In this document: positions 13,362-57,900 of the stretch, piece by piece | How positions within the stretch are numbered: position 1 is the stretch's first letter | Layout of the letters: the number at the start of each line of letters is the position of its first letter | NCBI RefSeq assembly: GCF_004324835.1 | Contig: NW_021163026.1 | Location: forward strand, 2,163,271 to 2,227,270 | From: Dendronephthya gigantea | Taxonomy: Eukaryota | Length of the DNA stretch: 64,000 nt | Reading direction: 5' to 3' | The notes under the pieces: model-generated | Database searches by the model: none | Seen by the model: the letters and a program-made list of their open reading frames with translations, nothing else | What the model was told of the DNA's origin: nothing | Translations under genes and position numbers: made by a program

Positions 13362-16300
13362 ATGTCTAGATTCTTCGCTGCTCGTTCATCTGGCAGCGAG
13401 GATGAATCAAGCGACGAAGCGCCAGTTGCTGTACCAAAACCAGCGCCCACAGTTGCTTCAAGGTTTGTTGAAAATCTACGTTTTATAATACTTCTGTGCA
13501 TGAGTCATATAAATATGACGAGTATTATAACGTAATGGATGAATGATTAATAAGGAGCACGTTTTGTTCATATTAAGCATAGTGTTTGCCTCAAAAACAA
13601 CAAATTACAGTATCAAATTTTAGTACAATTGTTGCACGTGATAGCTTGTATGAAATATAGCACTGGCAGACACGTGAAGGAGTTTATATTAGGTGAAATA
13701 AATATCCCAATGTGTTGCGAGGAAAAAATCAAATATCCTGCATGGTTTTGCGTTGTAAGCTATGAATATGGCAAGTTATTCTAGGTTTGGATGGGGTGAA
13801 GAATTATGCTGCATTGCCGCTTACCAAGATCCTCTTAACCGGAGTGTTTTTCACATTTGTCTCGGTTATCCGCAAGATGATTTGTTGTGTCCGATGCACA
13901 TGTTGCCATGCCATAAAACTGATCCCCCTCATAGGGCAGCTGTTTGTCATTTATGCCTCAACCAATATTTATGCCTCATCTAAATTCTTACAATTATGGC
14001 TAGTCTGTATCCTATGAGCTTTGCTAGTATGCCAGGCAGCAATTGTTTCCTGCTCACTAAGAGAAAACCTAACTCTGTGTGAAGGTTCTTCAACATTTGC
14101 TACACTGGAGGCCTATTTAGACTACACAATAAGTTGTATGCAATTATCATTCTGATGAATGCAAAAGAGGGCCTATGCCACAATCTTCATTCAGTTTTGT
14201 TCAGGTTTGAATTTAAAGTGTCACGTTTGTATGTGTGTTCATACGTTCACATATACCAGAGTACGAATCCTATGTGACAAAACGCATAGTGTAAATTGTC
14301 CTTAAATGATCCACCAGTGTGCTTATTTAATTCTCATAATCCTCCAATCAGGGCTCAGTTTCTGTTCAGTGACGAAGAAGATGAGGACACGAAACGCGTT
14401 GTCCGAAGTCAAAAAGACAAACGGTAAAAATGAGTTCACAACATTGGGCAGTGTGGAAAGGTTGGGAAAAGATGGCTTGGACACTGTTTTTATTGAATGG
14501 TTTTTATTTTTTTTATTTGCTGTAGATTTGATGAAATATCCAGCATTGCCAAGCAACTGAAAAATCACAAGAAAATCAAAGACATGTCCAAGATCCTGAC
14601 AGGTAAAGAGTAAAACCTCAATTGTAAATTTTAAAATCATATGCTGTAGAAATGTATACAAGATACATCTAAGCATGACAATATACCCATATTCAATGTT
14701 GCTTCATTCGCAGAGTTTGAAAATCTTGGTCGAGCATTCACGAAAGCAAAGAATGTAGTTGATAAGGAAGGAATTCCAACCACATTTATCAAATGTTTGG
14801 TGGAGTTGGAAGATTTCATCAAAGAGGTATAACACTCATTTAACAAAATTTTGCAGCCTAGGTTTTCCAGCCAGGGTTTCAACTGTGTAGGATTCAACCA
14901 TCTTTACCTGGATCACAAGTTTGCCACCAGGAATCATCGTCATATGTTCCATGTTAATCATTTGTTCTCTTAATTTTCATTGCAGAACTGGGAGGACACT
15001 GAAGGAAGAAAAAAGCTCAGCAAATTGAATGCCAAGGTCAGTGTAAAATCGTATGAATTACCGTATGACTCACTCTTGTTGATATGAATGAAAATCTGAG
15101 AAATGGGTATTTTTTTAGGCACTCACTGCTTTGAGGCAAAAGGTTAAGAAGTACAATAAGACATTTGAAAATGATATTGAGAAATACAGAGAGGTATGAA
15201 TGGAGTGGATTTGAAAAATAATGTTTCCTTTCTGGTGTTGTTAATTCATGAAATGTTGGTTGTTTTTAGAATCCACTCATCTCTGATGATGGTGAGGAAG
15301 AAGATGCTGGCAGATCAGGCAAGTGTTATAAATGGTTTGAATTGTTTTATTATTAAACAAGCCACCAGAAACCACAGATTAATAATGAAAAATCATGAAT
15401 ATTCATCATTTTACAATTCTGACAGATGATTCAGATGAGGATGATGACATCGTCTTGAAAAAACCTGAACCACAAGCTGCTAAACAAAAAGCAGATAAAT
15501 TTGAGGTATGCTGTTTGTGATATGGGGGCATTTGGTATTATCCCCACCCCTCTCAATGGGTAGCCCCTTGCCTCTTAAGAATTACCCTCATTTCAATGAA
15601 CAGTCTGTCTGCTAAGAACTGTGTTTGTTATGACAGGATTCAGACAGTGAATTTGATGATATGGACAGCGATGTTGAAACAGACAGCAGCAGTGATAGCG
15701 ATCTTGATATCCCTCAAGGGGGGAAAGTTACTGCTGCCATGTTCTTGAAGAGGTATAAACATCTTCAGTAAGGATCATCTCTTATTGATCCAGTTTTACT
15801 ACAGGACTTGATAACTGTATCAGTTCTAAAACTGTTCTTCCTAGAGGTCCAGTAAGGATCATCTCTTATTGATCCAGTGTTACTACACGAGGAAACCTAA
15901 ACTAAACTAACTTTATTTATACTAGATAGTTCTATCAGTTCTAAAACTGTTCTTCCTAGAGGTCCAGTAAGGATCATCTCTTATTGATCCAGTGTTACTA
16001 CAGGAGGAAACCTAAACTAAACTAACTTTATTTATACTGGATAACTCTATCAGTTCTAAACTGTTCTTCCTAGAGATCCAGTAAGGATCATCTCTTATTG
16101 ATCCAGTGTTACTACAGGAGGAAACCTAAACTAAACTAACTTTATTTATACTGGATAGCTCTATCAGTTCTAAAACTGTTCTTTTTAGAGGTCCAGTAAG
16201 AATCATCTCTTATTGATCCAGTGTTACTACAGGAGGAAACCTGAACTAAACTAACTTTATTTATACTGGATAGTTCTATCAGTTCTAAACTGTTCTTCCT

Positions 16301-19300
16301 AGAGGTCCAGTTAGGATCATCTCTTTTTGATCCAGTGTTACTACAGGAGGAAAACTCATACCATATCTATTTGTAGTTTTACTGCAGTAGGAAAAATAAC
16401 CTGAACTTGTTTTACTTCTGTGTTTCTCAGAGAACGGGATGAAGATGAAGAGAAAACTAAAGAGAAGAAACTTGAAAAGGAAAGACAAAAAAAACGCAGA
16501 CAAAAAGTGAAAGAAGATCAAGAAGAAGAGGATGAAGGAGAGGAATGGGAGCAAGTCAAATCATCTCACACCATTGTACGTGTTTGTTTCACGTTTTTTG
16601 TTTTATTTTCCTGACATATTTCTCAACGTCATCGTCTTCTGTTTTCAGGAGAAGACCAGAGCATTGTTTGCCAAAGACACAGAGATAAATCACGCCGTTA
16701 TTCTCAAGAAATTGCACGAGATTTTAGGAGCTCGTGGAAAAAAGGTTGGTTTTGTTGTGAGTTGATCTGCTGATCCTACAGGAACGATAGCGTCTCTTAA
16801 ATTATTTTGCTTTGTGTTTAGGGAACTGACAGAACAGACCAAATTGAGTACCTCAAGGATTTAAGAAAGATTGCAGAGAAAAACAACCTAGGTTAGTCTT
16901 TGAAATCAAGCTTTATTCTTCAGTATTTCAGGATTAGGGATTAATTTATTCTTCAGTATTTCAGGATTAGGGATTAATTTATTCTTCATTATTTCAGGAT
17001 TAGGGATTAATTTATTCTTCAGTATTTATGGATTAGGGATTAATTTATTCTTCAGTATTTCAGGATTAGGGATTAATTTATTCTTCAGTATTTATGGATT
17101 AGGGATTAATTTATTCTTCAGTATTTATGGATTAGGGATTAATTTATCCTTTAGTATTTATGGATTAGGGATTAATTATCCTTTAGTATTTATGGATTAG
17201 GGATTAAAAACCAACCAGAATCCAGGATTTATATCATTTTCTTGCCTTCCTCAGGTGTTGCAATGAGCATCAAGATCATGTTCAACATTATTGCATCCAT
17301 CTTTGATTACAACCCAAATGCAGCCACTTGTATGAAACCAGAAATGTGGAAAAGGTATGAGAGAGTCGACAGAATATAATGCTTACTGTATATTTCACGC
17401 TTGAATAAAACTAATTTTGTTTTACTGCTCAGCTCAGGTAATTTGATTTAGTGTTCTTCCTGCATGGTGATTCTGTAGCATTCCCTCGCATCTTTAGGCT
17501 TTGAGTTTGAACGTTGTGGTTATTTGCAGTATTTAGTAATATCCTGGCTTCTGTCTGCTTCATTTCAGTTGTCTGGAATACGTGAATGAATTGTTGATAA
17601 AACTCGTGGATAATCCTAACGTCACTGTGGGAGAAAACATCGCAGAAGATGCTGAAAATTTGGAGGTAACTTGAATTGAACAGGGGCCGGTTGTATCAAA
17701 CCCGTTTATCTAAAGGCCCTGTTACACGGTGCAATTTTTCCTGCAACTTGCAATGCAATTCTTCTTTTGAGGGATGTAAATTTGGCAACTACCAAACTTT
17801 CGTCTTTCTTACACTCCATGGCGTTTACTATGTATAGAAGTTTGCCCTGTCCTAATGCGCGTTTTTTTTCTAGGATGCGGACGCTGGGTTCAAAATTCGC
17901 GGTTGCATTTTGATCGCAATCGAGAGAACTGACGATGAATTCACAAAGATGTTACAAGGATGTGATTGTCATTCCACTGAGTATGTTGAGAGGTAAGCTG
18001 ACATAATTGAAGGATGAATTGTTTTCAGAGTGAAACCTATTCTTAGACCCCATTTTTCGGCCAATTCGACCATGGTCGAATTCGTCATTTTCCGGTAAAT
18101 TCATCCCTGCATTATGTGTAAATCTCTGATGATGTGTGATCAGGTATATCCATCATTTTCCTCCAGGTTGAAAGATGAGATTACTATGACCTTATTGATC
18201 AGCAGAGTTATGAAATATCTTGAAGACCACGATGCTGCTCCCAGCATGATCTGCAGAGTTTATCTCAGATTTATTGAACACATTTACTATAAGGTTAGTC
18301 AAAAGTAACTAGAATTTCCACCGTGTTTTTCCCTGATGCATTGCCAGGCACCCCGACGAGATTTCAAGGACAATTATCCTCGGGAAAGAGGGAGGTAGGA
18401 TAGATTGCTAGAGAGGAGAGAGAAGGGGGTTTTGTTACTGAAATACTTACCTCCAGCCTTATCCCCCCACAGCTTGACATGGTTCGTATGAAGGAAATGA
18501 GCGAGGAAAGGAAATTGAACAAAACTTCAGACGAAGAGGAAGTGTCAGTAGATCAAGCGGCAGCATCGACAGCCTCTCAGATGGAGGGAATGTGTCAGTT
18601 CATTTACTCCAAAGACGACTCGAACCGTATCAGGACCAGAGCGATGTTATGTCACGTTTATTTCCTCGCTCTGCATGATCGCTGGTACGAGGCACGTGAT
18701 CTCATGCTGATGTCACATTTGCAGGAGAATATCGGGCACTCTGATATACCCACACAGGTAGGTGGAATACTAATGACGACATTTTTGAACGGACTATCGT
18801 CACGTTGTTGGTTAAACTTAAACCTTTGTGTAGATTTTGTACAACCGTACCATGGTACAGCTTGGTCTGTGCGCGTTCCGTCATGGTATGATCAAAGACG
18901 CACACAACGCCTTACATGACGTACAGTCAAGTGGCAAGGCTAAAGAACTTTTGGCGCAGGTCAGTAGAAGATTTCAAACACATTCACTGTAAACACTGAT
19001 CCCTGGTCTTACTGCATTCATCATATGATAATAGGATCATCTCCAGAATCCACGGATATAATCCCAACTTTAATCCTAAGTCTTAGCCTAAGCCTTACCC
19101 AAGTACTATCCTTAAATGATTAGATTGAGGATTAGATTAAGGATGATCATATTCCTGGATTCTTGGCTTGGAATTATTACTACTTACTGTGTTTCACCCT
19201 ATCATTTGTTACCATTCCTATTATTAAAGCGATGTCTTTCCTCTTGTTTCTCCAGGGTCTAATGCAGCAGAGACAACACGAGAGGAATTTGGAACAAGAA

Positions 19301-21364
19301 AAAATTGAACGGCGAAGATTGGTATGTGTGCACGTGTTGGTCATGTATTGAGATGCAATATAGAGGAAAATGACGAATGTTTGAGACGGAATTTGCTAAG
19401 AGTATTTCCACGAGGAGCTCATGATCAACTGTCATCTTTTGCTTAAAGGAAAAAGAGCCTGTATGAGTGTTGACAAGCATGAGTATTCCATGAGTACCTC
19501 CTCAGCTGTCATTTCTTTTTTCCATGAAAAAAGCTTGTGATGAGAGTTGGCAAGCGGCAATATTCATGAGTGTCTTCTCCTGTAAACTGTCAGTACTGAC
19601 CCTTGGAACAAAGCATGCATGAATGTCCATTGAGATTCATCCTCGTTTGACCTGAGCCTTGTTTAACCTAAGTTTTGTTTGACCTCAGCCTGTCCATTGA
19701 GACTCAGCCTTGTTTGACTTCAGCCTTGTTTGACCTCAGCCTGTCCATTGAGGTTTTTTTTCGTTTTGTGAAGGTGCCATTCCACATGCATATTAACCTG
19801 GAACTGCTGGAGTGTGTCTACCTCACCTCAGCGATGTTGCTCGAGATTCCTCATATGGCAGGTGAGTGGGAACATGTGGAACATGCTGGGATATTTTTTA
19901 AGCCAATGATGTTTCTTACGATTGTTTTTTTTGTTTTAGCACGAGAGTTTGAGCATCGTCGACGTATGATTAGCAAGAGTTTCCATCATCAACTGAAACT
20001 GAGCGATAGACAGCCTTTAGTAGGTCAGAAGAATACACAACTATTGCTTCTTATCATCCATCAATATCCATCATCAACCTCTATCATCACCATATATCAT
20101 GTAGTATCCATTAACACCATCATTATGTATAAGATTCATTACCCATCGTTATCCATCATCATCTATTGCTATCCATCATCATCATTATATATCATCACCC
20201 TGTACCATTCCATCCCCATTCTTCATCTTATGAATACGTCCTAAATATTTAGGTCCACCTGAGAGCATGCGCGAACACGTTGTAGCCGCGTCGAAAGAAA
20301 TGAGCAAAGGAAATTGGCGCGAGTGTGCCGACTTTATTCTGGCCGTTAAGGTAAGTTCTACGATGAGAAAAATTATCATGTTGGTGTCAAAAATATTAAC
20401 AGATATTTCTTTCAATGCAAGGTGTGGAACTTATTCGACCAGGCCGAGGAAGTGAAGAAGATGTTAAAAAGGTAAGTTGCCCTCCCTAGGAACGGCTGGG
20501 ATTGACCTCTCGATGCCTCGATGGATTTTCAAATGCATTCTTACACTTGTTTTCATGTGTGTTTAGAAAGATCCAAGAAGAATCACTCAGGACTTACCTT
20601 TTCAGCTACAACAGCGTGTATGATTCCATTAGGTAAAGAAACCATTTTGATCCAAACTCTCTTCATTGTTTCATCGTTCTCCCGTGCGTGAGGAGATATT
20701 GAGTTCCATATATTCTTGTACCTGAACCATCTCCTCTGTATTTAGTATGAATACTCTGGCTGCAATGTTTGAACTGGACCGTCCTGTTGTGCACAGCATA
20801 ATCAGCAAAATGATCATCAACAGCGAATTACAGGTACTGGGAAATTGTGATGTCTCTAGATCTTTACGTGTGTGTATCCAGTAGTTTGTTTGAACGACGT
20901 CTTTTCGTTTTTAGGCATCTTGGGACGAGCCAACCCAAACTGTGGTCATGCACCGTGGTGCTGAACCATCTCGTCTACAGAGCTTAGCACTGCAATTGGC
21001 AGACAAGGTAACACGAGGCCTGCATATTCACGTTTCCCTGCGATTTCAACCAAGTTAAATTTCATGTGTTTTTCTTCTTTTTAGATCAGCACTCTTGTTG
21101 ATAACAACGAACGAGTATTGGACACGAAACATCAATTTAACTATCGTGATCGACAAGGTAAACTACGAGAGAATACGAAAAGTTTAATGAAAGATACAAA
21201 ATGAAACACTGGAATAAAACATCACAAAACAGAATGTACATTACAGGCTATATTCAGGCTGGAATTAACGACAACTGCCTTTTTCTTGTGTCTTGAAATT
21301 TCATTTTAAATTCGTTGCAGGGCAAGGACGATACAGACCTCAAAGAAGTCAGCAAGTATATTAA
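13362..21364 (+). CDS. EIF3C: Eukaryotic translation initiation factor 3 subunit C (eIF3c, PCI-domain protein), 28 coding exons
   Basis: Exons, all GT-AG except one GC-AG: 13362-13462, 14352-14423, 14526-14602, 14714-14826, 14986-15036, 15119-15193, 15270-15318, 15426-15505, 15637-15752, 16431-16575, 16649-16744, 16822-16891, 17255-17354, 17569-17665, 17874-17992, 18167-18293, 18473-18757, 18834-18959, 19256-19321, 19774-19861, 19940-20023, 20253-20350, 20422-20471, 20567-20632, 20746-20833, 20915-21007, 21085-21157, 21321-21364. Phases are continuous and the total is 2649 nt, or 882 aa plus a stop. Motifs matching eIF3c include MSRFFA...[139 protein letters not shown] and the C-terminus [13 protein letters not shown]. 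Confidence 0.9.
15757..16350. repeat. Tandem array (about 5 units) of a 117-bp satellite-like repeat in the eIF3c intron between exons 9 and 10
   Basis: The unit is ggtccagtaaggatcatctcttattgatccagtgttactacaggaggaaacctaaactaaactaactttatttatactggata(g/a)ctctatcagttctaaa(a)ctgttcttcctagag. It contains an internal inverted repeat, GGATCA...TGATCC. Confidence 0.9.
16897..17215. repeat. Minisatellite of about 36 bp and roughly 9 units in an eIF3c intron
   Basis: The unit is ttattcttcagtatt(tca/tat)ggattagggattaattta. Related ggattag(g) motifs recur around 19060-19150, 31040-31200 and 31890-31960. Confidence 0.85.
19635..19760. repeat. Short degenerate tandem repeat (tgtttgacctcagcc / tgtccattgag) in an eIF3c intron
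   Basis: It reads gtttgacctgagccttgtttaacctaagttttgtttgacctcagcctgtccattgagactcagccttgtttgacttcagccttgtttgacctcagcctgtccattgag. Confidence 0.7.
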
Positions 21365-22594
21365 AGTTTTCGGATCAAGGACAATCACAAAGGCGGTATA
21401 CATAGTCAGAGTAATTGTAACTCGATAACAAGAGAGAAAATATTTAATAGGGACGTTACCGGATAGGAATACGAAAACGCACAAAAGCATTCAAAATCAC
21501 CAAATATAATCATCTCTATTCCGGACCTAATATAATACATTACATTCTAGATCCTGGGTATAGGAAGTTATTGAGGTTGGAGGGTCTGAGGTTTACCCCC
21601 TTCTTCCCCCGCTTCCTACGCCCTTGTTCTAGAATTTTTCTCTTTATTGGAAAATATTTAGTTTGAAAATAAAAATCCGCTTGTCATGGACACTGAAGTC
21701 TCGATATCAGTGCATATGCTAATTTTGCAGTTTTCTAATCAATGTTTACCGCAAATGCGTTTTGCCACGAGCTCCAATTTGTTCGGCGCCATTGGGTAAT
21801 GTTTTCGGATGTTTTCACGAATACGTAGACAGTTTGCTATCTCACAGTAGAGATTGTGGTAAAGAGGAACTCCTTCAAACCATCGAACTGATGAGATTTG
21901 AGGAAGCAAAACGTGACATATGTTATCAAAAACACTGTTTTTAAAAAGTACAGTTTTTCAGCTGTTCTTGAACTTTTGTGCTGCCCGAAATCTCAGTATT
22001 CTTGAAACTAACCACCATCTTGGACATGAATGTTATAATCTGTTCTGTACAGAAAGAAAAATGAGAATTATGCCGACCATCTGGCGAAATACCACATCTT
22101 CACTGCATGTCTGTGAAATTTGATCTAACTCTGATTAACTTCTGCCCATAACGTTCGGTATTAAGTAACCGCTAGATAAAAACGCGCCCAAAGCTAACGC
22201 ATAAATCGAAACTTGGCGCACTCGCCGCGATCTTTGAACAACGTGAAAAGTTGCACAAACGTGCGCGTCATGTCTATTTCTGCGTTTTAAAATGAAATGC
22301 GTGCGTCACCATGCGCTTAGCGTAGCGAAGTACCAACACCCTGTTGTATATGCCTAATATGGTCATGGAATGCATAATTTATTGAAATTGATCCATTGCA
22401 ATAAAACGGGATTTATATTCTGGCACTATTTTCCGGTGATTACAGCGAAATTATCTCGTGAAGTGATCTAAATTTTGAAAGGATAGTTGCATCGTGTGTT
22501 TGTCTTTTTGAGAGTTTGTTTTGGAAGGAAATCTGAGCGGCGAAAGCGGGATTATTTACATTTTTAGCGAAGCATCAAGAAGAACATTTCAGCG

Positions 22595-22607
22595 ATGGAC
22601 GATTTAG
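22595..22607 (+). CDS. PXN: Paxillin 13-nt first coding exon (MDDL plus 1 nt)
   Basis: The ATG at 22595 is followed by the donor G|GTGAGGTAC at 22608. The acceptor ttttttag|ACGCAC at 23485 restores [11 protein letters not shown], the canonical paxillin N-terminal LD1 motif. Confidence 0.75.
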
Positions 22608-25600: not shown

Positions 25601-27110
25601 GGCAGTCTTCAATCTGATATGACCCGCCAAGGAGTGAGTACGGTCAAGAAAGGCACATGTGCGGCATGTAATAAGCCAATCATTGGCCAAGTTTGTACGG
25701 CTCTCGGCAAGACGTGGCATCCGGAGCATTTCACATGTGTTGCATGTGAGTTGCCCCTGGGCTCAAGAAATTTTTTCGAAAGAGAAGGCAAGCCATTCTG
25801 TGAGAAAGATTACCATGAATTGTATGCTCCAAGGTGTGCTTACTGTAATGGCCCCATTCTTGATGTAAGTAGACAAGCCTTTGTTCATTTTTTTAACCAA
25901 ATTGTGTTGCCTTTACTGTGTTTGAAGTATAGAAAAAACGTCTCAATCCAAGGACATTTATTGAGAGAGACAACTGTAATTAACACCTTTATGAACTTGT
26001 ACATTTTTTAAAGTTCTGCTATTTTATACTCATATTGTTATTATCGCATACTATATCACTACATAGAAATGTTTGTGAACTTTGACTCATAATTAATAAT
26101 TATAAATTAATAGATGATGTACATATTGGTTAACCTATCAGTTGATGAAAAAAAACTTGAACATTTTATTTTTAGTCATGTGTAACTGCTCTGGACAAAA
26201 CCTGGCATCAAGAGCATTTCTTCTGCCATCAATGTGGCAAACCCTTCGGAGATTCTGGCTTCCACGAGCGAGATGGCAAGCCTTTCTGCAGAGATGATTA
26301 CTTTGCTGCATTTGCTCCCAAATGTGGTGGCTGTGAGCAGCCCATCATGGATAATTATATTGCTGCTCTTGGCCAGCATTGGCACCCAGAGTGTTTCGTC
26401 TGCTATGTGAGTATATTCTTGTTTATAAAACTCTGTATGATTTAATGTGTACATTGAATTGTTCCAGTAAGGGCCAGTAAGGATCATCTCTTATTGATCC
26501 AGTGTTACTACAGGAGCAAACCTAAACTAAACTAACTTTATTTATACTGGATAACTCTATCAGTTCCAAAATGTTCTTCCTCGAGGTCCTTGATCCAGTG
26601 TTACTACAGGAGGAAACCTAAACTAAACTAACTTTATTTATACTGGATAACTCTATCAGTTCCAAAATGTTCTTCCTTGAGGTCCAGTAAGGATCATCTC
26701 TTATTCATTATTAATACTAGCTATTTTTATCAGATCTAAACTATAATACTAATAATATTATAATAAATGTCTTCTTCCTAATCTTATTGATGCGTTTAGT
26801 GGGTGGCATAATATGAATTACAAAAACATTTTGTTATTTCTAGGAATGCCATCAGCCGTTCCCAGGTGGCAGTTTCTTTGAGCACGAAGGAAAGCCTTAC
26901 TGCGAGATGCATTACCACTCAAAGCGTGGTACATTATGTTACAATTGCCAGAAACCTATCACGGGTCGCTGCATCACCGCAATGCATCGTAAGTTCCATC
27001 CAGAACATTTCATCTGCGCCTTCTGTCTGAAGCAGTTGAACAAGGGCACGTTTAAGGAACAAAATGATAAACCTTATTGTCATACTTGCTTCGTGAAACT
27101 CTTTGGTTGA
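22595..27110 (+). CDS. PXN: Paxillin-family focal adhesion adaptor (LD motifs and four C-terminal LIM domains), 7 coding exons
   Basis: Exons: 22595-22607 (ATG GAC GAT TTA G|GTGAGG), 23485-23676, 24614-24688, 25132-25389, 25560-25864, 26176-26406, 26844-27110. They total 1341 nt, or 446 aa. The spliced N-terminus is MDDL|DALLADLQ, the LD1 motif. Further LD motifs are [36 protein letters not shown] and [13 protein letters not shown]. The LIM domains begin [30 protein letters not shown]..., [19 protein letters not shown]..., [27 protein letters not shown]... and [30 protein letters not shown]... Confidence 0.88.
26466..26710. repeat. Two units of the same 117-bp repeat family in a paxillin intron
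   Basis: The same unit sequence as at 15757-16350, with minor substitutions. Confidence 0.9.
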
Positions 27111-43500: not shown

Positions 43501-46446
43501 TTATAAAATACCACGCGACTATGCTCCGTTTGATCATCTCCTGAAAAGACTTGGCGCTACGGAGAAGATCTCCGCTTCACAAATGGCCAGTGTTCTCAAG
43601 TCTATCAAAGATTCTTCCACAGATGAAAAGATGAATTCTGAAGAAGAGGAAAAGGCGTGCTTTGCTACTTCTGTTTTGTTCAAATCACTCCTTGACGATA
43701 AAGAGACCGAAGCTGATTCAAGACTGGCAAATTGCGAGGAGCTTCTTTTGCCAAGCATGGCTAAACGACTCATAAGCTCCGACAAGTTGGTTTGTAAAAT
43801 GCAGCCCCGACTCCGCGAGTCAGTAGCGAAGCAAGGCTACGAGATTTTGATGCCTTTTGAAAAATGCGGAATGAAACGTGAGTTGGAAAACGACTATCTT
43901 CAAGCTCTTCCTAATCGTCTCCGGCCAACGCCGTTAAGCGAACTGGTACGCGAAGAGTTACATCCGCTGTGTAAGAAGGACATGAGTTGTACTTTATGCC
44001 TGGCGATGGATTACCATTCGTTTATCCAGAAGGTTCATTTTACTTTTGCGATCCTCGCAATTTGAGCGCGGTATCATACGGCTCTTGAAGCACCAGAAGG
44101 AATTGACAGAGCTTGATGAAAAAGACAGAGAAAGAGCCGCACGATTTACTTCAGCTAAGGTTAGTCGTCATGTTTTTCGAATTTTCTAATTCAAAAGTTC
44201 AGACACAAACCACGACAGCTTATTGTAGAATACTACCTACACTGGACCACCACGTTTGAGATCTCTTTCTCAGGTAGTTCAGACACAAACCACGACAGCT
44301 TATTGTAGAATACTACCTACACTAGACCACCACGTTTGAGATACCTTTTTCATGTAGTTCAGACACAAACCACGACAGCTTATTGTAGAATACTACCTAC
44401 ACTGGGCCACCACGTTTGAGATATCTTTCTCAGGTAGTTCAGACACAAACCACGACAGCTTATTGTAGAATACTACCTACACTGGGCCACCACGTTTGAG
44501 ATATCTTTCTCAGGTAGTTCAGACACAAACCACGACAGCTTATTGTAGAATACTACCTACACTCGACCACCACGTTTGAGATATCTTTTTCAGGTAGTTA
44601 AGACACAAACCACGACAGCTTATTGTAGAATACTACCTACACTGGACCACCACGTTTGAGATATCTTTTTCAGGTAGTTCAGAAACAAACCACGACAGCT
44701 TTTGTGGAATAAATAACACTTCTTTTCTTTGCATAAGTCTCTCTATTTCTATATTAAAGCTGACTACGATCAAATGTATGCAACAAGTTCAAATCCACCT
44801 TGTTAACGTATTGAAGGAAGAACCATTGCCAGGAAGCTCAGTCGACAGATCGTGTCATGTAGAAAAGGAAGAGAATTCCTGGACACTGTATATTCAACAC
44901 GAATTTGGAGGCAGAAAGAACCACGCCATCTTCGCGAAAGCTGTAAATGAAATCATGGACAGATGTTTAGAACAAACTGCCGAGTTAAGCGATATGCTCT
45001 CTTGCGACTCGCCTTCCCAGATACCAGGAGTACTTAACGACCATGACGTTGCGATTGATTATAACGAAGAAAATGAACAGTTTGGTCTTCCTGTGCCGGA
45101 TGTTTACCACTATCTCATTATTCAAAAACCACTCTGTAATTACGAGGAAGGAGCTCGGGTTGCCTATGACGAGGACGAAGGTAATAAAATATGAAATATC
45201 CAGTTAATAGTTTGAAAATCACTTATGTAAACACTGCATCTATTGTAATTTTTAAGATGTTTGTTAGTTTGTATCGCTTGAAGAAAGTGTGTAAGGTGGT
45301 GTTCCTCAGTTCTGAAGCCTTTCCCAATCTTTTAATGGTGGGTGAATATTATTTACAACCGAAATATTTACTAAGCACTTTTCTCTTTTGGTTTTTCCAC
45401 CAGGTTGCGCTGGAAATTGGAAAGAAAGCGAGCTAAAGGAGACATCGATTAGATACAAGTTCGTAAAGATCAACAGTCGTGCCAATGCTATTGACAAAGA
45501 TGCCAATGAATTCGACTTCAAAGCTCGGTACAAAATTGATCTCGGCAGCAAAACTGACTATAAAATAGTGAGTGTCCTTGATCTTTATAGTTACAAACAG
45601 AACGAGATGGGAAGTCTCGTTCCAGACGATGAAGATGACGAAAAAGTAAAAGTGGATGTTTTGGTAGAAAAATCTAAAATCACTCGGGCACTTAAACTTG
45701 CCAAGAACAACTTGGACTCATTAACACAGCGAGAAAAGGTGATAAGGCGTCTTTTCCTACATTGGCTTCGTTGTAAGGACTCTGAAACTGCAGATGAGAT
45801 AACCAAATTCATAGAAAATGAAGTCACAAGGCTGAAGATTCTGTGTCTGGAAGAAACGCGAGCCTTTTCAAGTTACTGGAGAAGTTATGGCAAACGTGAG
45901 AGGACGACATATAGAAGCTACAATCGTTGGACGTCGGTATGCGACAGTCCTGGCGGTTACCATGACAGCGGCAGTAATCGCGGTTACCATGACAGCGGCA
46001 GTCATGGTGGTCATTATGATCCTTGGGATTACGTAAGCCCCGATGCAAAGGAAGCAGAACGATGGATCAAGCAATCGCAAGCAGATTTGAATGTCGCCAC
46101 GTGGTTGCTCGACAAATCCTTTTCACAAGTATGTTATATGAGCCAGCAATGTGTGGAGAAAGTTTTGAAAGGTGTTCTGTACGCCAAGTGTGGAATACCA
46201 CGAGTGGAATTACGTACCCACCATATATACCGGCTTGTAAATGTATGCCGTGGCCTCGACGAAGCCCCAAGCGAAGCCCTGGATCGAGCTAGTAGCGTTG
46301 GAGGTTACTACCTTCCAACACGTTATCCTGACAATCAACCGCAGTATCGAGTTCCCGCTGAAGAATACACCGAGGAACAAGCCAAGCAAGCGTTAGATGT
46401 TGCTGTAACAATTTTTGCAGTTCTTGAAAAATTTGCCTTCAACTAA
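31502..46446 (+). CDS. SACS: Sacsin-like giant gene with three HATPase-like repeats, a degenerate J domain and a C-terminal HEPN domain (gene span; two internal frame discontinuities)
   Basis: Exons: 31502-31517 (MAEAV-), 31986-32077 ([31 protein letters not shown]), 32191-32449 ([16 protein letters not shown]...[14 protein letters not shown]-), a giant exon 32770-44065, then 44760-45180 and 45404-46446. Three repeat cores of the sacsin repeating-region type are present: [28 protein letters not shown] (32191-), [31 protein letters not shown] (about 36600), and [31 protein letters not shown] (about 39650). Each is followed by a ...FRFPLR... segment. The total is about 4400 aa, comparable to vertebrate sacsin. 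Confidence 0.8.
32770..44065 (+). CDS. SACS: Sacsin-like giant coding exon (about 11.3 kb), read as two ORFs split by an apparent 1-nt frame discontinuity at 35550-35567
   Basis: The acceptor gttag|ATCTGCC joins YHIT to [17 protein letters not shown] (sacsin has [21 protein letters not shown]). Frame 0 runs open from 32770 to the TGA at 35565-35567. Frame 2 runs open from 35468 to 44065 and contains HATPase-like repeats 2 and 3. The two frames overlap only across 35468-35567. The true 3' end of this exon is uncertain; see the findings. Confidence 0.75.
44198..44700. repeat. Tandem repeat of about 80 bp and roughly 6.5 units, immediately downstream of the sacsin giant ORF
   Basis: The unit is gttcagacacaaaccacgacagcttattgtagaatactacctacactggaccaccacgtttgagatatctttctcaggta. 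Confidence 0.9.
45404..46446 (+). CDS. SACS: Sacsin-like C-terminal exon with a J-domain-like region lacking HPD and a HEPN domain
   Basis: The acceptor ccaccag|GTTGCGC is in phase with the donor GACGAAG|GTAATA at 45180. It reads ...[25 protein letters not shown]... (vertebrate sacsin has [21 protein letters not shown]). It continues with [36 protein letters not shown], where the J-domain position has LRCKD in place of HPDKN. The C-terminus reads [20 protein letters not shown]...[14 protein letters not shown]...[14 protein letters not shown], a HEPN fold with the TRYPD signature of sacsin's C-terminus. Confidence 0.8.
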
Positions 46447-48556: not shown

Positions 48557-51338
48557 GTGGGAACCATTATTATCTAGTGACATTGATTGAGTGAGTGTTG
48601 ACGAGAATCTGAAAGCAAGAGTTTCCATTTTTGATAAATTCTTCAGCTCTCGTGACCTAGTCAAAGGAAGACAAGAATTGCCAGAGAGTTGAATTAATAG
48701 CACGTAAAAAATGCTATTAGCTATCAACTTTTATCAAAATTTCACTATTTCGAAAGTCAAAAAGCTTGAGAAGCACTATCATTGACTCATATAAACTTTC
48801 TTTCTTTGTCTGCTGGCTTGCCTTTTCTTTTCTAATGATCAGCGTTTCTTGAATAAACTTTTATTACATTTCCTCCACAGATTGAAGAACGAGGTAGTGT
48901 GTTCCTGGACGAAGAAGATATGCTGAGTGTTCATGTTTTTATCGACGATGCAAATCTTGTTTATGATCCATTGCTTGATCCTCTCACGAAACAGAGCGTC
49001 TCAAAGTTGAGGGAAGAGAAAGACCAAAGATTGAGGAATTTGGAACGAGAATGGTAAGGTATCACTTGGTCTATAAACCTGTTTTTATACAAGAACTTCA
49101 GTATTGATGAAATCTGAACTAAACAAACGCTTATACGTTCTATACCTCTAACAATTCTTTCTAATGCATGTAGGAAGCTTCTCTTACAAATTTAATGAAT
49201 ACTCTCATGAATCAAACTAAGTTGACCGAGCATTCTTTTGTGTGTTCCGGTTAGATTTGAAAGGATTTATATAATTTTAAAACAGTGAAAGTTTCATCGA
49301 AAACACAATGGCGGAGAAAGATGTGATCATATCAGAACAGGAGGAGCTTTTGGAAGAACGCGATTGTATTATCAGTAAACAAGAGGGACATATCGCTGGC
49401 TTGAAAACAGAAATGGAAGACAACGATAAATATTTGAGTGAACTTGTTGACGGTAAAGATGAGGTAAGAGTTTGGACTTGAGAGGCAAGTTCTTTCGACC
49501 TTCTTCAATAAGTATAGTAGATAACAGAACTTGGTTCAATTCTAGTCGTTAAAAAAGGCTTAAACTACAACGAAGTAATATCTTCTGATTATAGACTGAC
49601 CACTTTTTTGTTTTATCATTGTGAAGGGTGAAGCGAGCAAACTCCTCAAACGTAGTCTTCGACAATTGATCAAAAATGCGAAACCGTCAAAAGACGAAAT
49701 AAAAGCACAGAAAACGGTCGAGAAGAAACTCAGCAAATTCCTGAAGGTTTGTCAACAAATAGATCAATAGTTCCGTTAATAGAGTAGTTTTGAATACAAG
49801 CTGGTCTGATGACAAATATGTTTTAGAAAAAGCTACCATTTAACATCAGTCGTGTGTCAGCTGTGGGTTCTTATGGACAGAAAACCACGTTAAAAGGATT
49901 GAGAGAGTGTGGTCTTGCCATTGCTATTCAAGGTAAGATTTGTCAGGAAGAAACGAGTCATTTTGAAGTGTAAAACCTCCATTTTTGGTTCCCTACGGGA
50001 ATAGTTTAGTACAAATGTTATTGAGGATTCAAAGTTAGTTCAGTCTTCTCTTTTACCCAGATCTTCCTCGCACAGAACATGATAGCTGGCTACCAACGAT
50101 CGTGGGCACCATTAAGACATTACTCAATCAACGTGATAAAAGCGACAGCACGATACCACCATGTTCTGAGTTCAACACCACATCATCGACCGTCAATTTC
50201 AGATGTGCTGACGTCGATGTTGAACTCACACCAATCAATGACTGGGAAAATAATGGTGGCTTCCAGGCCCTTTATCAAATGAGCCTGAAACAGAGCGCTG
50301 ACGTGCAAGTTCAGTGAGTATTGGGAACGATATTAAGTATCTCAATATAAACCTGAAGTGATACCGTTTTATACTTTTGCGTGTAAGTGTTAGTGTGAAA
50401 AGAATTATTTTTTTTATCATCTTTTACAGTTACAACAACAACGTATGTGAACTTCAAGCAGCATTTATCGCCAATCAACCTGAGAAGGTAAATCAGTTGT
50501 TCTCCAATGATGTCTGTGGACAAAGCGTTAAATTAAACACTTTATTTTCCTCGTTCATTCCAGTGTAAAGATTTGATACGAGTTGTGAAGAAGTGGAGCC
50601 GTGATATTGAATGGGATCCTGGGACCAAACCAAGCGACTATCTTCTGTCATTACTCGTTGTTCAAGCCTACGAGATCGTGCAACCGTAAGTAGGAAAGAA
50701 TAAAATTCCAAAGGCAATGGGGCTCGGAACCGCGCGCCTGCTAATAGAGTCCGGGAAAATTTTGAAATATAGGTCTCTGAAATCGCCGCAAATGCCTCTC
50801 AATTTAAGGATTAATAGAAAATAATAGAAGTATGTAAAGTTTTCAGCATGTTTGGCGCTCATATACAAATATTAAACAATATAACCTTGCTTTGGTTATA
50901 ATGTCAAATATTTTGACATCGATAACCACGCTGTTTTAATGGTCAGAACCATTGGAAGACACTTGAACCATTCTTTCTTGTACTGATAGAGACATGGTCG
51001 AGCAGTCGTCGGCAGATCTCGACGTGTTGTTGGAGATGGCTGATATAGTAAATGACAGTAACCTCGAGTGAGTATGTAGCGGACGGAACGAATACGAACT
51101 GTCAATTAAACTTGTCAATCCATTATCTTCCTAATTTTGGTTTACATTTAGATTATCCTGGGACACGGACAACTACATCTCTGCGCAGTATCCGCGGCAG
51201 TTCTTCCCCAAACCCTTCACACAACCTATCGTCCAGGACCCCGCTATCCCCACCCACAACGTGGCCGAGTCAGGCATGGAGGATTGGAAAGAATTTCGAA
51301 AAAGGTTCAAGGAATGGGTTATCTCATTGACTCCTTGA
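47393..51338 (+). CDS. Novel-architecture gene fusing two MATH/TRAF-like domains to an OAS-like (2'-5'-oligoadenylate synthetase family) nucleotidyltransferase, 10 coding exons
   Basis: Exons: 47393-48556, 48881-49053, 49286-49463, 49627-49746, 49827-49932, 50061-50313, 50430-50487, 50564-50685, 50990-51067, 51152-51338. Phases are continuous and total 2439 nt, or 812 aa plus a stop. All donors are GT(A/G)AGT-like, including two CA|GTGAGT and GA|GTGAGT sites that the ORF track reads as stops. MATH-like segments are LRTYVFIVEKFSSIGSEIYSKPFHFAGHRWKIQAG...FGAFLRW...GIGWGKLASLEDLE...DDTILVELHC and SSMFSFCNSRWSIIMFPNG...NVAVYLHCED... OAS-like segments are VGSYGQKTTLKGLRECGLAIAIQ (the NTase GS motif), CKDLIRVVKKWSRDIEWDPGTKPSDYLLSLLVVQAYE (OAS1 has LIRLVKHWYQ...PPQYALELLTVYAWE), and LSWDTDNYISAQYPRQFFPKPFTQPIVQDPAIPTHNVAESGMEDWKEFRKRFKEW (OAS1 has IYWTKYYDF..PIIEKYLRRQLTKPRPVILDPAEPTGDV...W..L..EA). 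Confidence 0.75.
49827..49932 (+). CDS. MATH-OAS gene exon 5, carrying the nucleotidyltransferase GS motif
   Basis: It reads KKLPFNISRVSAVGSYGQKTTLKGLRECGLAIAIQ-G. Aligned to the OAS1 motif [22 protein letters not shown], the [DE]h[DE]h positions read E-C-G, so the second metal-binding acidic residue appears to be replaced by Gly. Confidence 0.65.
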
Positions 51339-51906
51339 TAAAGTTTCAAATACCATTGTATCCAATCTTGTTTCATCGGTATTCAGACAAGATTTCCTGG
51401 GGTTTTCTCCGAATCAGATTTTAGTTGGAAAATCAGGGGGGTTAATTTAGTAGATTGAGAAATCAGGGGGAGGTAGAATTTAGCCAAAATTGACAAGGTA
51501 GTCTTTTCTCTCAACAAAATATCTTTATTTATAACTCTTCTGTTTTGGTAGTTTTGTTTATTGATAAATAGAGATTAAAAGACGTGAAATATTTCTCTAT
51601 GTTGCTTCTAGATACTTTTAAATTACAAGACTGAAAGGATTTCATTTACTGTATTTAAAAAATTTATGATTTCATAAATGTCTAGTTCAGCCGGCCGGAG
51701 TAGAGTAAAATGGCGCACTTCGTAGACCTGGAAACTACTATGTCTTCATTGTCTCGCAGCCAATCAGAATCGAGCATTTTGTTCACAGAATTCAAAAAGA
51801 GAAACAAAAATTGTTACGAGTGGAGAAATATTTGCAGATATTTGACAACTTTTGTGTGTGTTTTTTTGAAGAATTTTCTCTTCAGTGTTGCTGTGAAGTT
51901 GACAAG

Positions 51907-54900
51907 ATGTTTTCCAGTCCTTCGGTGGATAAAGAGAATGTTTTAGAAGAGGTAAATTTGTATTTTGCTGCCTTAGAAAGTTGAATTGAAAGATCGCTAT
52001 TTTAATGTGTGCATTGTTGATTGTTTTCATTATTTCTGTACTCTTTGATATATGCCTCTGATACTGGATGGTTTTGATAATTTTACCACGGTTAAACACT
52101 AGCAATACAGTGAATAGAAGAAATGAGTAAAATCATCTGGCATTAAAATACGAAATATATAAAATGGAGCAGTGTTAGAGTTATAAAGATATGGAGCATT
52201 GTTTGGCTGATGGCACAGCCATTGCACTAAGATGCATCTGCTTACTACCATGTTTTTTGCTTTTGTATAGATTTTTGCTACAACACCTGGCAGAGCACCT
52301 CTGAAGACTGTCCAAAAGGGAAGCATTGCAGCCGTGGGGACACCCTTGGGGATAGCGAAGAGAACACCAAGGCCAGGGTCTGCACATGCCACAACACCTA
52401 GTTTCCGTAGGCTGGCAAGAAGATTGAAACGACAGAGTGTACCGTTTGCTTTATCAAAGCCAGTGTCAATATTTGACAACAATGGAAAAGGTATCTTCAC
52501 AGGAAATCCTGTCTTTGAGGAAGGCGGACAACAATTGAAAAGAAATGGACCAGGGTTGAATGAAATGATACAAGACAAAGTCTCTGAAACTGTTATCAAG
52601 ATTAGGGAGGTATATCAATTAATATAATTATATAATTATCATTAGCAAACCATCATTATTATCACCAGTGATCATTACCATATGCCGCCCATCATCATAA
52701 ACAAAATCATATATTCTATAGAGGTATGAGGCAACCTTAGCTCAGAAACAACATGATCTTGATGAAAAGAATATCATGATCTCACAGCTACAATCAGAAA
52801 TCAGCCTTCTAAAACACTCTCACAATGACAGCCAGACACAGTCAGAAAAAGTAAACCAGGATTTGAGCATTTCAAACTTTGTGAATGAAGTAATCTCAAA
52901 GGCTGCTCAAGAGATCCAGAATGAAGATTCCACAGCAGAAACCTGCGACCTGCAACCTTCCTCTGTTGATTTAATACAAAATACCTCACCAGTAAAGCTT
53001 AGAGGTTGCTCAACTGCAATCACACCAACAAAATTGGTTTCTGCAGGAACATCTCCAATAAAACTTAAACTAACAGAAAACGAGACATCCATGACGCCCG
53101 TCTTGAAGATCCATGAAGCAACTTCGGTAACCCCGGTTGGAACAGCAGACGCAATGCTGGCAACCTCTCCTGCTTGTCTGAAAGATGCAGGAATTTCCAC
53201 ATCACCTTTCTGCCTGCTGGACTCAACAACAAACACATCTCATAACTGTTCACTCAACTCAGTGCAAGAGACCTCATCCACGAGCACCAAATCTGATGGA
53301 GAACACAAACCATATCCTGGATCTAAAGGCGGTAGCTCCATTCCAGATGGGAATGATACCGATCCATCCTTCAATTGTGCAGAAGAAACAGCAGTAGCTG
53401 CACCTATAAAACCGGAGCAAGATTTTGGAAGCCTGAATGTATCCTCACAGAGAGAATCCTGTGGGACCCCACTCTCTTCAATACATATAACAGATGCAGA
53501 TAATGGTCACGCCTTTTCCGACAATACCCTAAAGGAAATTGGAACATCAATGACACCCGTCACCCTAATACACAAACACACACTGGTGTCTCCAGTGCAA
53601 ACATCAAATGTATCAATATCCACCTCGCCCCTTGTTGCTGCTCTCCATCCAGAAATCATTACAAGCCTGCCACTCAGTCAACTCCGATCCGAACTAGAAT
53701 CAGCCGCAATCAGCAATGAGCTTCTGAGAAGCGAATGCGACGAGCTTAGCGCAAAGATTGAACTACTGCAGTCATCTGTCGACAAGGCAAGATCTGAGGC
53801 TGAGAGGAAATGTAGCTCAATGCAAAATGTGGTAGATTCTCTTACAAAAAAACTTGAAGAAGCTTTGGAGCTCAATGAGGATATGGAAAGGAAGAAGGTG
53901 AAATCGTTTATAAAATCACAATACAATACAGTTTTATTACTTTTCAAGTACTTTTATAATGGTACATGATTGAGAAAATCATAATCCCTTGGGTCAGCTC
54001 TATAACCTAGCCTATTGTACAACTGGCTAGAGTTTAGCAATTAAACTGCTGAACCGAGCTCGCCAGCCTGCCCCACTGCTAAACTCCAACTGTTCTCATT
54101 ATCATTACAGCCTTTGAACGCTGAGGAATATGACAAAACCATCAGCAGTCTGCAGAAAGATATCTTGTTGAAGGAGAAACAGATGACATTTTACATCAAG
54201 GTACTCGTGAGCTAAACTAGGTGTTGCTTGAAAAACATATGAAAACAAAAACCATGCATGTTATGATAGTTTCATAGGCCAGCACTGGAAATCGTGAACA
54301 CTTGAGCAAGCTGATTATGCAGTAATTTTTTGCATTGTATGTGTTAATTAAACAGAAAGCATCTGAAGCAGATAACTTACAAAAAGACTTGCGAAGAATG
54401 TATGCAAAATACAATGCACAGGTATGAATCATTGATACTGTTTAGTTAATATAATATACTATGCAACTCTATCTGTTTGTAGAGGTCCAGTAAGGATCAT
54501 CTCTTATTGATCCAGTGTTACTACAGGAGCAAACCTAAACTAAACCAACTTTATTTATACTGGATAGCTCTATCAGTTCTAAACTGTTCTTCCTAGAGGT
54601 CCAGTAAGGATCATCTCTTATTGATCCAGTGTTACTACAGAAGGAAACCTAAACTAAACTAACTTTATTTATACTGGATAGCTCTATCAGTTCTAAACTG
54701 TTCTTCCTAGAGGTCCAGTAAGGATCATCTCTTATTGATCCAGTGTTACTACAGGAGGAAACCTAAACTAAACTAACTTTATTTATACTGGATAGCTCTA
54801 TCAGTTCTAAACTGTTCTTCCTAGAGGTCCAGTAAGGATCATCTCTTATTGATCCAGTGTTACTACAGGAGGAAACCTAAACTAAACTAACTTTATTTAT

Positions 54901-57900
54901 ACTGGATAGCTCTATCAGTTCTAAACTGTTCTTCCTAGAGGTCCAGTGAGGATAATCTCTTATTGATCCAGTGTTACTACAGGAGGAAACCTAAACTAAA
55001 CTAACTTTATTTATACTGGATAGCTCTATCAGTTCTAAACTGTTCTTCCTAGAGGTCCAGTAAAGATCATCTCTTATTGATCCAGTGTTACTACAGGAGG
55101 AAACCTAAACTAAACTAACTTTATTTATACTGGATAGCTCTATCAGTTCTAAACTGTTCTTCCTAGAGGTCCAGTGAGGATAATCTCTTATTGATCCAGT
55201 GTTACTACAGGAGGAAACCTAAACTAAACTAACTTTATTTATACTGGATAGCTCTATCAGTTCTAAACTGTTCTTCCTAGAGGTCCAGTAAAGATCATCT
55301 CTTAATGTTACTATTATTTTCAGCACCAGTCATACATGACAATGGAAGAAGAAACGAAGAAACTCAGTGAGAACTACAGCGCAAAGTGTGTCAACTACGA
55401 CGCATTACAAAGTGAACTTTGTGACGTGAAAGTTGAACTACAGCAAGCTCTTCAGGAGATTGAGGCTCATGGTAAAGTCAGGGAGGAGGCTAAAGAGCAT
55501 CAAGTGAGATGCAGCATTCTTGAAGAACAGATTCAGGTTTGTCTCAAATAAGTAGATTTGTATTTTAAACCCCCAACTAGGGCGATTCGGAAGGTTAATA
55601 AGAGAAGCACTTGTTGGAGGTGATACAGGGTCAAGGGCCAGGGCAGACGTATCCATCCATGAAATTTTTCTTGTGTGCATTTAACCGGCATTTTCTTCCT
55701 CTTCAAATTCTTCAACATTCAGAGCTCTAGCTGAGGTGCCGGGAACCGACTTATAAATAGTAGAACCACATTTCTCGATCAACGTATTTTTTCAGCAAGT
55801 ATAACAGCATGGTATTTTTATCGTTTATTACATTCTCCTGAAAGCGACACTTTCTTTGCAAAGTCTTGATGTAAACTGAGTTATCGCGGATTTCTGGTGC
55901 AAAGTTCTCGAGCGTCTCCGTCGGGATTCTCCTAGCAATGACATCAAGTATTTTCTCAAGTGGTAACTCGTGACGTGCAGCGTAAGGAAGAAGACGCAAA
56001 GTATTTTCGGGCTCAAGATTCCCAGCTTCATTCATACATCGCTTTATGACATCTATCGCTGTGTATTTGTCAGCGATCTCGAGAATATCGAAAATATTGT
56101 CATCGTCAATTTCTACAATTTCATCGCCCAGCATTATCGTTGGATATAATAACTTGAGGAATTCATTCATAGCAAAATAGTCATCGTCTTTTAACTCGAT
56201 TCTCTCCTGTGTTGCATCCTTGAAGTTGCCGTTGAACATCGCTTCAAACACAGGTGACTGCAACGACAGAATGTAGCGATGGACATGAAGCTCTTTGCTT
56301 TCGACCACCAACACAGCATCGCTCCTTCGCCATGGTTTTGAAAAAAAATCATAATTTTTTTCCCCCATATTTACGTTCATGTATACTGTAATGTACTCGC
56401 TTTCATGAAATGTTTTCAAGAAGTCAGAATGTAATATGACTCTTTGTGAGCCATTTTCGTTCGGGTAGGCACTTAGGGTAGGCTAATCGGGACACACATC
56501 AATGACACACGTTATTTCAACTTAGTAACGGCCACTGGTAACGGCACGTCTTTTATGAGTTTTATCGTAATTGAGTTATAATGTAAGATATTATCATGGA
56601 CTTTGACTTATCTGTTTCATATTTTTACAGACCTTCCAATGCCAGCAGAGAGAGAATCTGGAGTTCTTGGAGCAAGAGAGAAAAGGACTGGAAGAGACAA
56701 GCCTTGAGTTGGAACAACAAGTAAGCGTCACTTTGTGAATCGAGAAGAGTTCATTGCCCAAAACAAAAAATTTGATGGTGAGAACTCGTGCATCATGTAA
56801 CACCAAACGTCAAATTCAAGAATTTCCGTCTAGTTCCAGTCGGAGTAACTCCATACAAAATTCGTATTTTCAATGTTTTCCTAACATCATTCACTTCCTG
56901 CCATTGTCATCTTATAAATGAAAGCCGGCAACTGCTAGGTTTACTACGAGTACGGTCCTTAATTCAAACCATTTTACGCTTCTTTTAAAGGTTAAAAGGC
57001 TTTCGGAAGAACTAAGTTTGGCGCGTCAGGCTTTTGAGGAAAAGTCACGACTACACGAGGATACGAGTGACACTGTGCGTCAATTACGGTACGTTCAACG
57101 GTTCACGTTTTGTTCGTTTCCACAGCAACACGGGAGTGAAACGCTAACTTCAGCACTATACTTGGTTGAACCAAAAATAAGTGATTTGAGTTTTTGACTC
57201 TGTTTCTCGTTAAGAATTTAGCAAATGATTGTATTTTACATAGTTCTAGACATTCCTAGATAATTCCTCTCTACGTCTGTCTTAAACGTTCAAAAACCCA
57301 GAAAAACTACGCCAAGTTAGCGTTCCATGTTCTAGCTATTACACTGACTCGAAATCATCAGTTTTCCTCCAGTAATGGCAGTGTATACTTACAATCCACA
57401 GGAGTCAACTATCTGACGTCCAGGATGAACTGAACGCTGTACAATCTCAGGCGTATCTGCTCATGTTGGAACAAGAGAAAGAATTGACAGCTGCATCGAG
57501 AGTTCTGGAAGACACCTGGGAACGACTTGTGCCTGTCGTCGAGACGTATAAAGAACGTGCCAAACAACAGGAGGAGGTAAGCGTAGGAGGGACCCCCCGA
57601 CCCTCTCTCCACCTGGGACGTCACTCCTTCCCCGCACACACCCACTAAGGAGCCGTAAGACTTTCATTGCAATTTTTTTTATCATTTTTTTAGCCGACAG
57701 TGGAGAAAAATAGCGAAGAAATATTAGGGAACGAATACAGACCATCGTTTGTGTATTCTGTCCTGGCAGCTGTTTCAGGATCCGTGCCAACGGTAAGAAC
57801 ACATCGCGCACACCAAGTTTACCCAATTGCCATGCACTAGCTGTCTTCCCCTCGAGATTCAGAAATTGAGCAGTTTTAAACATGATAGAAATAGAAGACA

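Follow-up and report, generated by a model that had tools for sequence, protein, structure and literature searches.

A 114-bp tandem repeat in short introns of Dendronephthya gigantea and other octocorals: a probable dispersed satellite with a frozen monomer

Satellite monomers whose consensus stays unchanged across well-diverged species are described as "frozen" and are accommodated by the idea of a satellite "library"; octocoral repeats are mostly unclassified. Among the systems described so far, the closest match to the repeat reported here appears to be the dispersed euchromatic satellites of Tribolium castaneum, in which 29 of 68 TCAST-like elements lie in introns and arrays are no more homogenized internally than among each other (PMC3411249), and in which Cast1 to Cast9 spread in bursts in gene-rich regions, with extrachromosomal circular DNA (eccDNA) detected and proposed as the route (PMC11610590). 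In the octocoral Dendronephthya gigantea, tandem repeats account for 7.24% of the assembly and are the largest annotated repeat class (PMC6447388). Here, we examined a stretch of 64,000 nucleotides of its genome (assembly GCF_004324835.1, contig NW_021163026.1, positions 2,163,271 to 2,227,270; hereafter the window) together with corresponding loci of octocoral relatives, and found a 114-bp tandem unit that recurs in introns of unrelated genes. On balance, we favor reading this unit as the monomer of a satellite DNA family dispersed in the gene regions of an octocoral clade that includes D. gigantea, being neither a transposon with defined ends nor a creator of introns. Apart from a monomer frozen across well-diverged octocorals and an apparent renewal within introns, the family is an ordinary dispersed euchromatic satellite. 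Like those of Tribolium, it forms short arrays and partial monomers scattered in gene-rich DNA, many of them intronic, with high similarity between loci. Part of the Tribolium repeats, however, is embedded in transposon-like units, none of which were observed here, and the octocoral host introns are very short, so that arrays make up nearly the whole intron, unlike in Tribolium. Literature searches for octocoral satellites and intron repeats gave no description of the family, and a 19-mer of the unit occurred in no paper of the searchable library.

Arrays were detected with Tandem Repeats Finder (TRF), then by BLAST with the unit consensus and with an nhmmer profile made from 55 copies, for which the reversed-sequence control reached a maximum of 2.1 bits; intron limits were set by hand from GT-AG boundaries and conserved exon blocks. 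In the window, TRF calls have a period of 114-115, 2-7 copies and 94-97% matches, and correspond to head-to-tail monomers of one family, with the following arrays:

15766-16356, plus strand: array 1, ~5 units of 114-115 bp (TRF, BLAST, nhmmer)
16375-16415, plus strand: degenerate tail of array 1, toward the acceptor of intron 15753-16430 (nhmmer, 10.1 bits)
26470-26742, plus strand: array 2, ~2.5 units (TRF, BLAST, nhmmer)
54480-55309, plus strand: array 3, 7.26 units (TRF, BLAST, nhmmer)

The three arrays are far above chance. TRF itself called array 1 at 15806-16353 (period 115, 4.8 copies, score 977), array 2 at 26494-26685 as a partial-period call, and array 3 at 54480-55304 (period 114, 7.2 copies, 97% matches, score 1587). 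The original prediction, made from the letters of the window, had placed one repeat unit in introns of eIF3c, paxillin and a coiled-coil gene, and this is borne out, BLAST and nhmmer extending the array limits called by TRF. The length it gave, 117 bp, has to be corrected to 114 bp (115 bp in two copies of array 1, through an extra A); the internal inverted repeat that it described, GGATCA-N8-TGATCC, is indeed present as a palindrome at unit positions 15-34. The unit has a G+C content of 36% and stop codons in all six frames. Array 1 is sense to eIF3c (Pfam eIF-3c_N is matched on the exons adjoining it) and fills most of the GT...AG intron 15753-16430; its units match the family consensus at 97-99% identity, and the first has an internal deletion. 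Array 2 is sense to paxillin (LIM and Paxillin domains) in the GT...AG intron 26407-26843; within it, TCCAGT direct repeats flank a 25-bp deletion, and its last piece is degenerate. Array 3, sense to a coiled-coil gene without Pfam name in the GT...AG intron 54422-55323, is the youngest array observed, with units at 98-100% identity to the consensus; its flanks resemble older degenerate unit sequence.

The relatives' loci (L001-L013) are contigs from octocoral holobiont assemblies, found via exon-sized open reading frames (ORFs) of eIF3c, paxillin and BTB; their sources include ENA ERZ25073789, ERZ25067893, ERZ25067548, ERZ25878362 and ERZ25073809, and GCA_949826985.1. An approximate tree from exon distances reads (D. 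gigantea, (L013, ((L001,(L002,L003)), (L009,(L004,L005))))), with L011 outside that clade and L010 and L012 more distant still. At third codon positions, D. gigantea stands at a distance of 0.36-0.62 from the L-numbered members of the clade (the L-clade), the deep splits within the latter lie at 0.32-0.46, and the closest pairs at 0.06 (L001 vs. L003) and 0.05 (L004 vs. L005). The 114-bp tandem unit also occurs in five other octocoral lineages, where it occupies further introns of the same genes, in both orientations; in all, it is present in at least 10 distinct introns of 5 genes in the window and loci L001-L013. The arrays of the relatives, by host intron and orientation to the gene, are:

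eIF3c intron b: arrays in L001-L003, sense
eIF3c intron c: arrays in L001-L005, L009 and L013, antisense
eIF3c intron d: arrays in L001-L003 and L013, antisense
eIF3c intron a': array in L009, sense
eIF3c intron b': array in L013, sense
paxillin intron (the same as that of array 2 in D. gigantea): arrays in L004, L005 and L009, sense
coiled-coil intron (orthologous to that of array 3): degenerate copies in L008, antisense

The unit was not found at the loci of L010, L011 and L012. Scans of JGI metagenomes with two 24-25-mers of the unit gave no match, though the JGI-derived contig L006 carries it, and a scan of viral contigs gave no unit match.

Several of these introns can be compared in a filled and an empty state. 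The array-bearing intron a of eIF3c in D. gigantea exists array-free in L001, L003 and L009; introns b, c and d of the same gene are array-free in D. gigantea, at 187, 59 and 76 bp (by eye, introns c and d bear some likeness to collapsed antisense units, which nhmmer with the reversed-sequence control does not support). The paxillin intron is empty in L013 (121 bp), and also in L011 and L012. Altogether, seven host introns (eIF3c a, a', b, c and d, that of paxillin and that of a phosphatase gene which we take to be PPP4C, the name being assigned from the human sequence) occur at the same position repeat-free in another lineage; for the coiled-coil intron there is no empty comparator, as the sole relative compared, L008, carries the repeat too, in the opposite orientation. 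Since each tested intron occurs repeat-free in a relative, the repeat entered pre-existing introns and created neither these introns nor their splice positions. Orthologous loci are comparable across species in human euchromatic alpha-satellite repeats as well (PMC7719264); yet, the parent of the latter is a known centromeric satellite (PMC7719264), whereas the octocoral unit is known from short intronic arrays.

The empty orthologs bear directly on the idea of an introner-like element, whose insertion makes introns or supplies splice sites, hence arrays that reach splice junctions. The sense unit does contain a donor-like CCA/GTAAGG (the slash marks the splice junction), a branch-like ACTAAC and acceptor-like TTCTTCCTAG/ and TTACTACAG/, several arrays end a few bases from a donor or acceptor, and two introns with relic copies, those of PPP4C and of a FTSJ3-like gene, are nearly all unit-derived. 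At the seven tested introns, however, the intron is not confined to lineages in which the element is present, and array orientation toward the host gene is roughly balanced, about half of the arrays being antisense, where the splice-like motifs cannot act. An introner origin is thus largely refuted here, and we leave it only a vestigial chance.

The relic copies in the window are the following:

28407-28459, plus strand: PPP4C relic, a single degenerate partial unit (31-82), antisense to PPP4C (alignment and nhmmer, 18 bits)
8886-8935, minus strand: FTSJ3-like relic, unit 59-108, 82% identical (BLAST E 1.6e-9; nhmmer, 25 bits)
49106-49254, plus strand: weak old relic (tentative), in a putative intron at ~49054-49285 (nhmmer, 12.2 bits, E 0.009)

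At the first of these loci, where the phosphatase exons match PP2A-family catalytic subunits, the original prediction saw a truncated repeat copy from which the splice donor was derived, and raised the possibility of exaptation as splice signal. The fragment stands, with a local alignment score of 61 against 19.5 +/- 3.8 for shuffles, and, in the minus-strand intron 28393-28462 (70 nt), it covers positions +4 to +56; the repeat-derived donor does not stand, as the GT, and indeed the donor bases GTG, fall outside the alignment. At most, the repeat-derived part of the donor would be limited to intron positions +4 to +10, a stretch that is non-significant alone, and so are the donor-proximal 16 nt of the fragment, which 169 of 1,000 shuffles match or equal in score. 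The intron lies at the same codon (NYCYR/CGN) in L004 (514 bp), L005 (504 bp) and L011 (163 bp), the repeat sequence is absent from all three, and the L004 donor reads AG/GTCGGT. Because the intron is shared with these repeat-free relatives, its splice position predates the fragment, and exaptation is not supported as stated. The relic of the FTSJ3/SPB1-like gene is sense to its host, which has an FtsJ domain on the adjacent exon, and fills most of a ~100-nt intron (8856-8957). The putative intron of the weak relic comes after an exon conserved with L011 (block 48896-49058). A further match, at 57359-57431 (5.6 bits), overlaps a conserved exon and was treated as spurious.

Directly upstream of array 1, at 15739-15775, the eIF3c exon end and donor (TGTTCTTGAAGAG/GT) are collinear with the unit (TGTTCTTCCTAGAG/GT), and the nhmmer match of the array reached back to 15741. 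In L001, the donor of intron b, CTAGAG/GT, is an 8-nt match to the unit. The collinearity at array 1 may stem from microhomology at insertion, or from chance, as donors resemble AG/GT.

Occurrence at many loci in both orientations, along with a short palindrome in each unit, would also be in keeping with arrays that are the central repeats of a non-autonomous DNA transposon, either a miniature inverted-repeat transposable element (MITE) with internal repeats or a Helentron/DINE-1-like element, inserted by a transposase or a rolling-circle enzyme. Satellite-like arrays are carried in this way in the oyster (PMC7492417), and the Cg_HINE elements of the Pacific oyster recall the octocoral case in several respects: a marine invertebrate, tandem repeats as the dominant repeat class, and satellite-like arrays genome-wide (PMC7492417). 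Yet, Cg_HINE repeats have specific left and right flanking sequences (PMC7492417), whereas the octocoral arrays have no common flanks and variable ends. In an all-against-all comparison, 150-nt array flanks matched between orthologous loci only, via their exons, and non-orthologous arrays are thus without a common flanking module. Across 12 arrays, terminal inverted repeats (40-nt flanks) did not rise above shuffles, nor did target-site duplications, which the original prediction had suggested seeking at the array edges and which were sought as direct repeats across the junctions, where degenerate edges could hide very short ones. Moreover, arrays begin and stop at variable unit phases, and several are only 10-20 nt from a splice site, which leaves too little space for transposon ends. 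A transposon of this kind is, in our view, quite unlikely. Of the "mobile satellite or MITE-like" family first suggested, one dispersed satellite-like family in unrelated genes is upheld, whereas the MITE-like part, for which terminal inverted repeats, target-site duplications, a shared flank or a fixed end would speak, is not. As for RNA, the search of Rfam with array 3 and its flanks (54300-55500) gave no relevant family at E <= 1, the unit folds no more stably than shuffles (z -0.97 to +0.21), and the hairpin pairs show no covariation above shuffles, with uncompensated variants such as GAGTCA...TGATCC in L004 and L005. The hairpin, having neither covariation nor excess stability, was dropped as a selected structure, and these results argue against a structured RNA element or a known RNA family. 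Because the flank, end and fold tests are negative, the arrays fit a naked satellite rather than a MITE, a Helentron composite or a structured RNA.

The monomer itself is strikingly constant. Per-species consensus sequences are identical at 114 of 114 positions in the D. gigantea window, L001 and L002/L003, lineages whose silent-site distances are ~0.45 substitutions per site; the consensus of L004 has two differences. Most array consensus sequences lie 0-2 positions from that of the family, including two arrays of L009 and the intron c array of L013, the outliers being the paxillin arrays of D. gigantea (3 positions) and L009 (5 positions). Compared with "frozen" or library satellites, the octocoral case rests on short arrays in introns instead of bulk satellite. 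A consensus unchanged over such a distance is also a point outside the Tribolium studies (PMC3411249; PMC11610590). Single units, on the other hand, do diverge, the mean distance from the consensus being 1% in array 3, 2-12% in most arrays and ~26% in the relics. Since array consensus sequences stay near that of the family, most mutations must be private to single units, with little homogenization within arrays. The arrays of L001 and L003 differ by ~9%, the same as the flanking non-coding DNA, which points to decay at a neutral rate over short evolutionary distances. Divergence is greater in edge units than in inner ones (91.6% vs. 94.7% identity, one-sided p = 0.03), and the least variable part of the unit is positions 21-35 (2-3% vs. 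6-9% elsewhere).

Two readings of this constancy have to be weighed. One takes the arrays for functional intronic elements under purifying selection, whether protein-binding or regulatory modules or sources of small RNAs, which would explain the frozen monomer, its identity across so large a silent-site distance and the variability minimum. However, presence and absence vary among lineages at nearly every site, the arrays of L001 and L003 diverge just as their flanking introns do, both orientations are found, and the fold, covariation and Rfam results speak against a structured function; we judge such selection on the arrays very unlikely. The other invokes recent horizontal transfer between octocoral lineages in place of long conservation, and would account for an identical consensus despite high host divergence, as well as for the failure to find the family at the loci of the more distant L010, L011 and L012. 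Yet the filled sites nest within the host tree (intron c in all L-clade members, intron b in L001-L003 only), close relatives have unit-specific variants in common, array ages in each lineage range from 1% to 26% divergence, and an unrelated 80-bp family, described below, is equally conserved across species. Transfer is therefore highly improbable.

For the dispersed satellite that we favor, the ages of sites and units are informative. Intron c is filled, always antisense, in every L-clade lineage, and these lineages have gathered ~0.16-0.23 neutral substitutions each since their split, yet the units lie just 4-12% from the consensus. The paxillin intron shows the same mismatch of site age and unit age between D. 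gigantea and L004, L005 and L009, and arrays at sites shared across splits of 0.32-0.46 have a mean unit divergence of only 1-12%. As a neutral source would have changed at ~20 of 114 positions, a source held at the consensus must exist, which suggests constraint on the source sequence; the seeded sites would then be renewed by homology-guided copying, and not passively inherited. We propose that blocks of near-consensus monomers would enter pre-existing short introns in either orientation, breaking at an arbitrary unit phase, after which each unit would gain private mutations at an approximately neutral rate, the array edges being the first to decay. The end stage would be collapse to a single degenerate unit, as possibly seen in the 70-nt PPP4C and ~100-nt FTSJ3 introns. 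Most probably, the monomers would be copied or recombined out of a conserved source array, either traveling as extrachromosomal circles or entering an existing seed by gene conversion; this circular-DNA or recombination route of spread is an inference. Copying into seeded sites would leave one intron filled, in one orientation, across deep splits and with young-looking units.

Some points weigh against this model. The survey is confined to the window and the relatives' loci, and the species tree is built on only ~1.4 kb of exon sequence. Filled and empty introns are too diverged to align, so that small target duplications or microhomologies may have escaped notice, and a carrier element with decayed ends is conceivable at these loci. 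Independent hits on hotspot introns could possibly mimic the renewal of persistent sites; the coiled-coil intron, filled in sense in D. gigantea and in antisense in L008, indicates that repeat hits on one intron do occur. As to what holds the source constant, it is conceivable, if unlikely, that a sequence-specific propagation or recombination system recognizes the least variable box (unit ~18-46, ATCATCTCTTATTGATCCAGTGTTACTAC), or that selection maintains a function of the monomer in octocoral genes. A candidate for such a function is stepwise removal of the array during splicing, which sense copies could permit through their adjacent acceptor-like and donor-like motifs (TTCTTCCTAGAG/GTCCAGTAAGG). 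If true, the invariant source and the refilling of introns in the same orientation would make the monomer more than tolerated junk.

All six copies in the window, and all copies at the relatives' loci, are intronic. A preference for introns cannot be shown here, because ~79% of the local non-coding DNA is intronic (a rough hand annotation of the gene-dense window from 8 to 64 kb): random placement would give six of six with p ~0.24, or ~0.05 once the relatives' sites are added. We propose that arrays sit in introns mainly as these make up most of the tolerated non-coding space in a compact genome.

The family offers a tractable case for two questions, the movement of naked arrays to new euchromatic sites and the long-term freezing of a monomer, with orthologous introns available filled and empty in several species. 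In practice, the arrays will inflate differences in intron length between octocoral species, and may confuse intron-based markers and gene models. Together with the 80-bp family, the 114-bp family may also hint at the nature of the tandem-repeat fraction, with arrays colonizing, swelling and vacating the short introns of housekeeping genes.

This second, 80-bp tandem family follows the same pattern as the 114-bp one. In the window it forms a 6.5-unit array (44196-44711, plus strand) in an intron-like gap of a sacsin-like gene and a single copy (8675-8738, minus strand) in an FTSJ3 intron; in the relatives it occupies other introns (L008 4710-4906; L009 707-861) and is 92-96% identical across species. 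Kinship of the 80-bp and 114-bp units was considered and rejected, there being no similarity above shuffles. Three further tandem repeats were noted: a 33-bp minisatellite in another eIF3c intron (16912-17207, 9 copies, 95% matches), seen only in the window among the sequences compared; a short imperfect repeat in the eIF3c gene region (19624-19752, periods 16, 35 and 51); and a coding repeat near the 3' end of the FTSJ3-like gene (8153-8330, minus strand, periods 21, 33 and 54), which encodes an aspartate-rich acidic tract.

Gene content around the arrays also differs between species. In D. gigantea, PPP4C and a MATH gene are separated by the giant sacsin-like gene (32194-46446, with ORFs of 947 and 2833 aa and a C-terminal ORF of 352 aa); in L011, PPP4C is followed by the MATH gene after no more than ~2 kb, the sacsin-like gene being absent from that position. 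In L012 a reverse-transcriptase ORF (RVT_1) occurs near paxillin (14750-15433), a locus at which the 114-bp family was not found. Finally, an intron of the coiled-coil gene harbors, on the other strand, a single-exon BTB gene (55751-56419, minus strand). Its ORF is 100% identical to an NCBI protein of D. gigantea, which marks the window as soft-coral DNA, and the next named matches come from the gorgonian Paramuricea; at the same place, L008 (6205-18195) carries six or more BTB paralogs, located on both strands.

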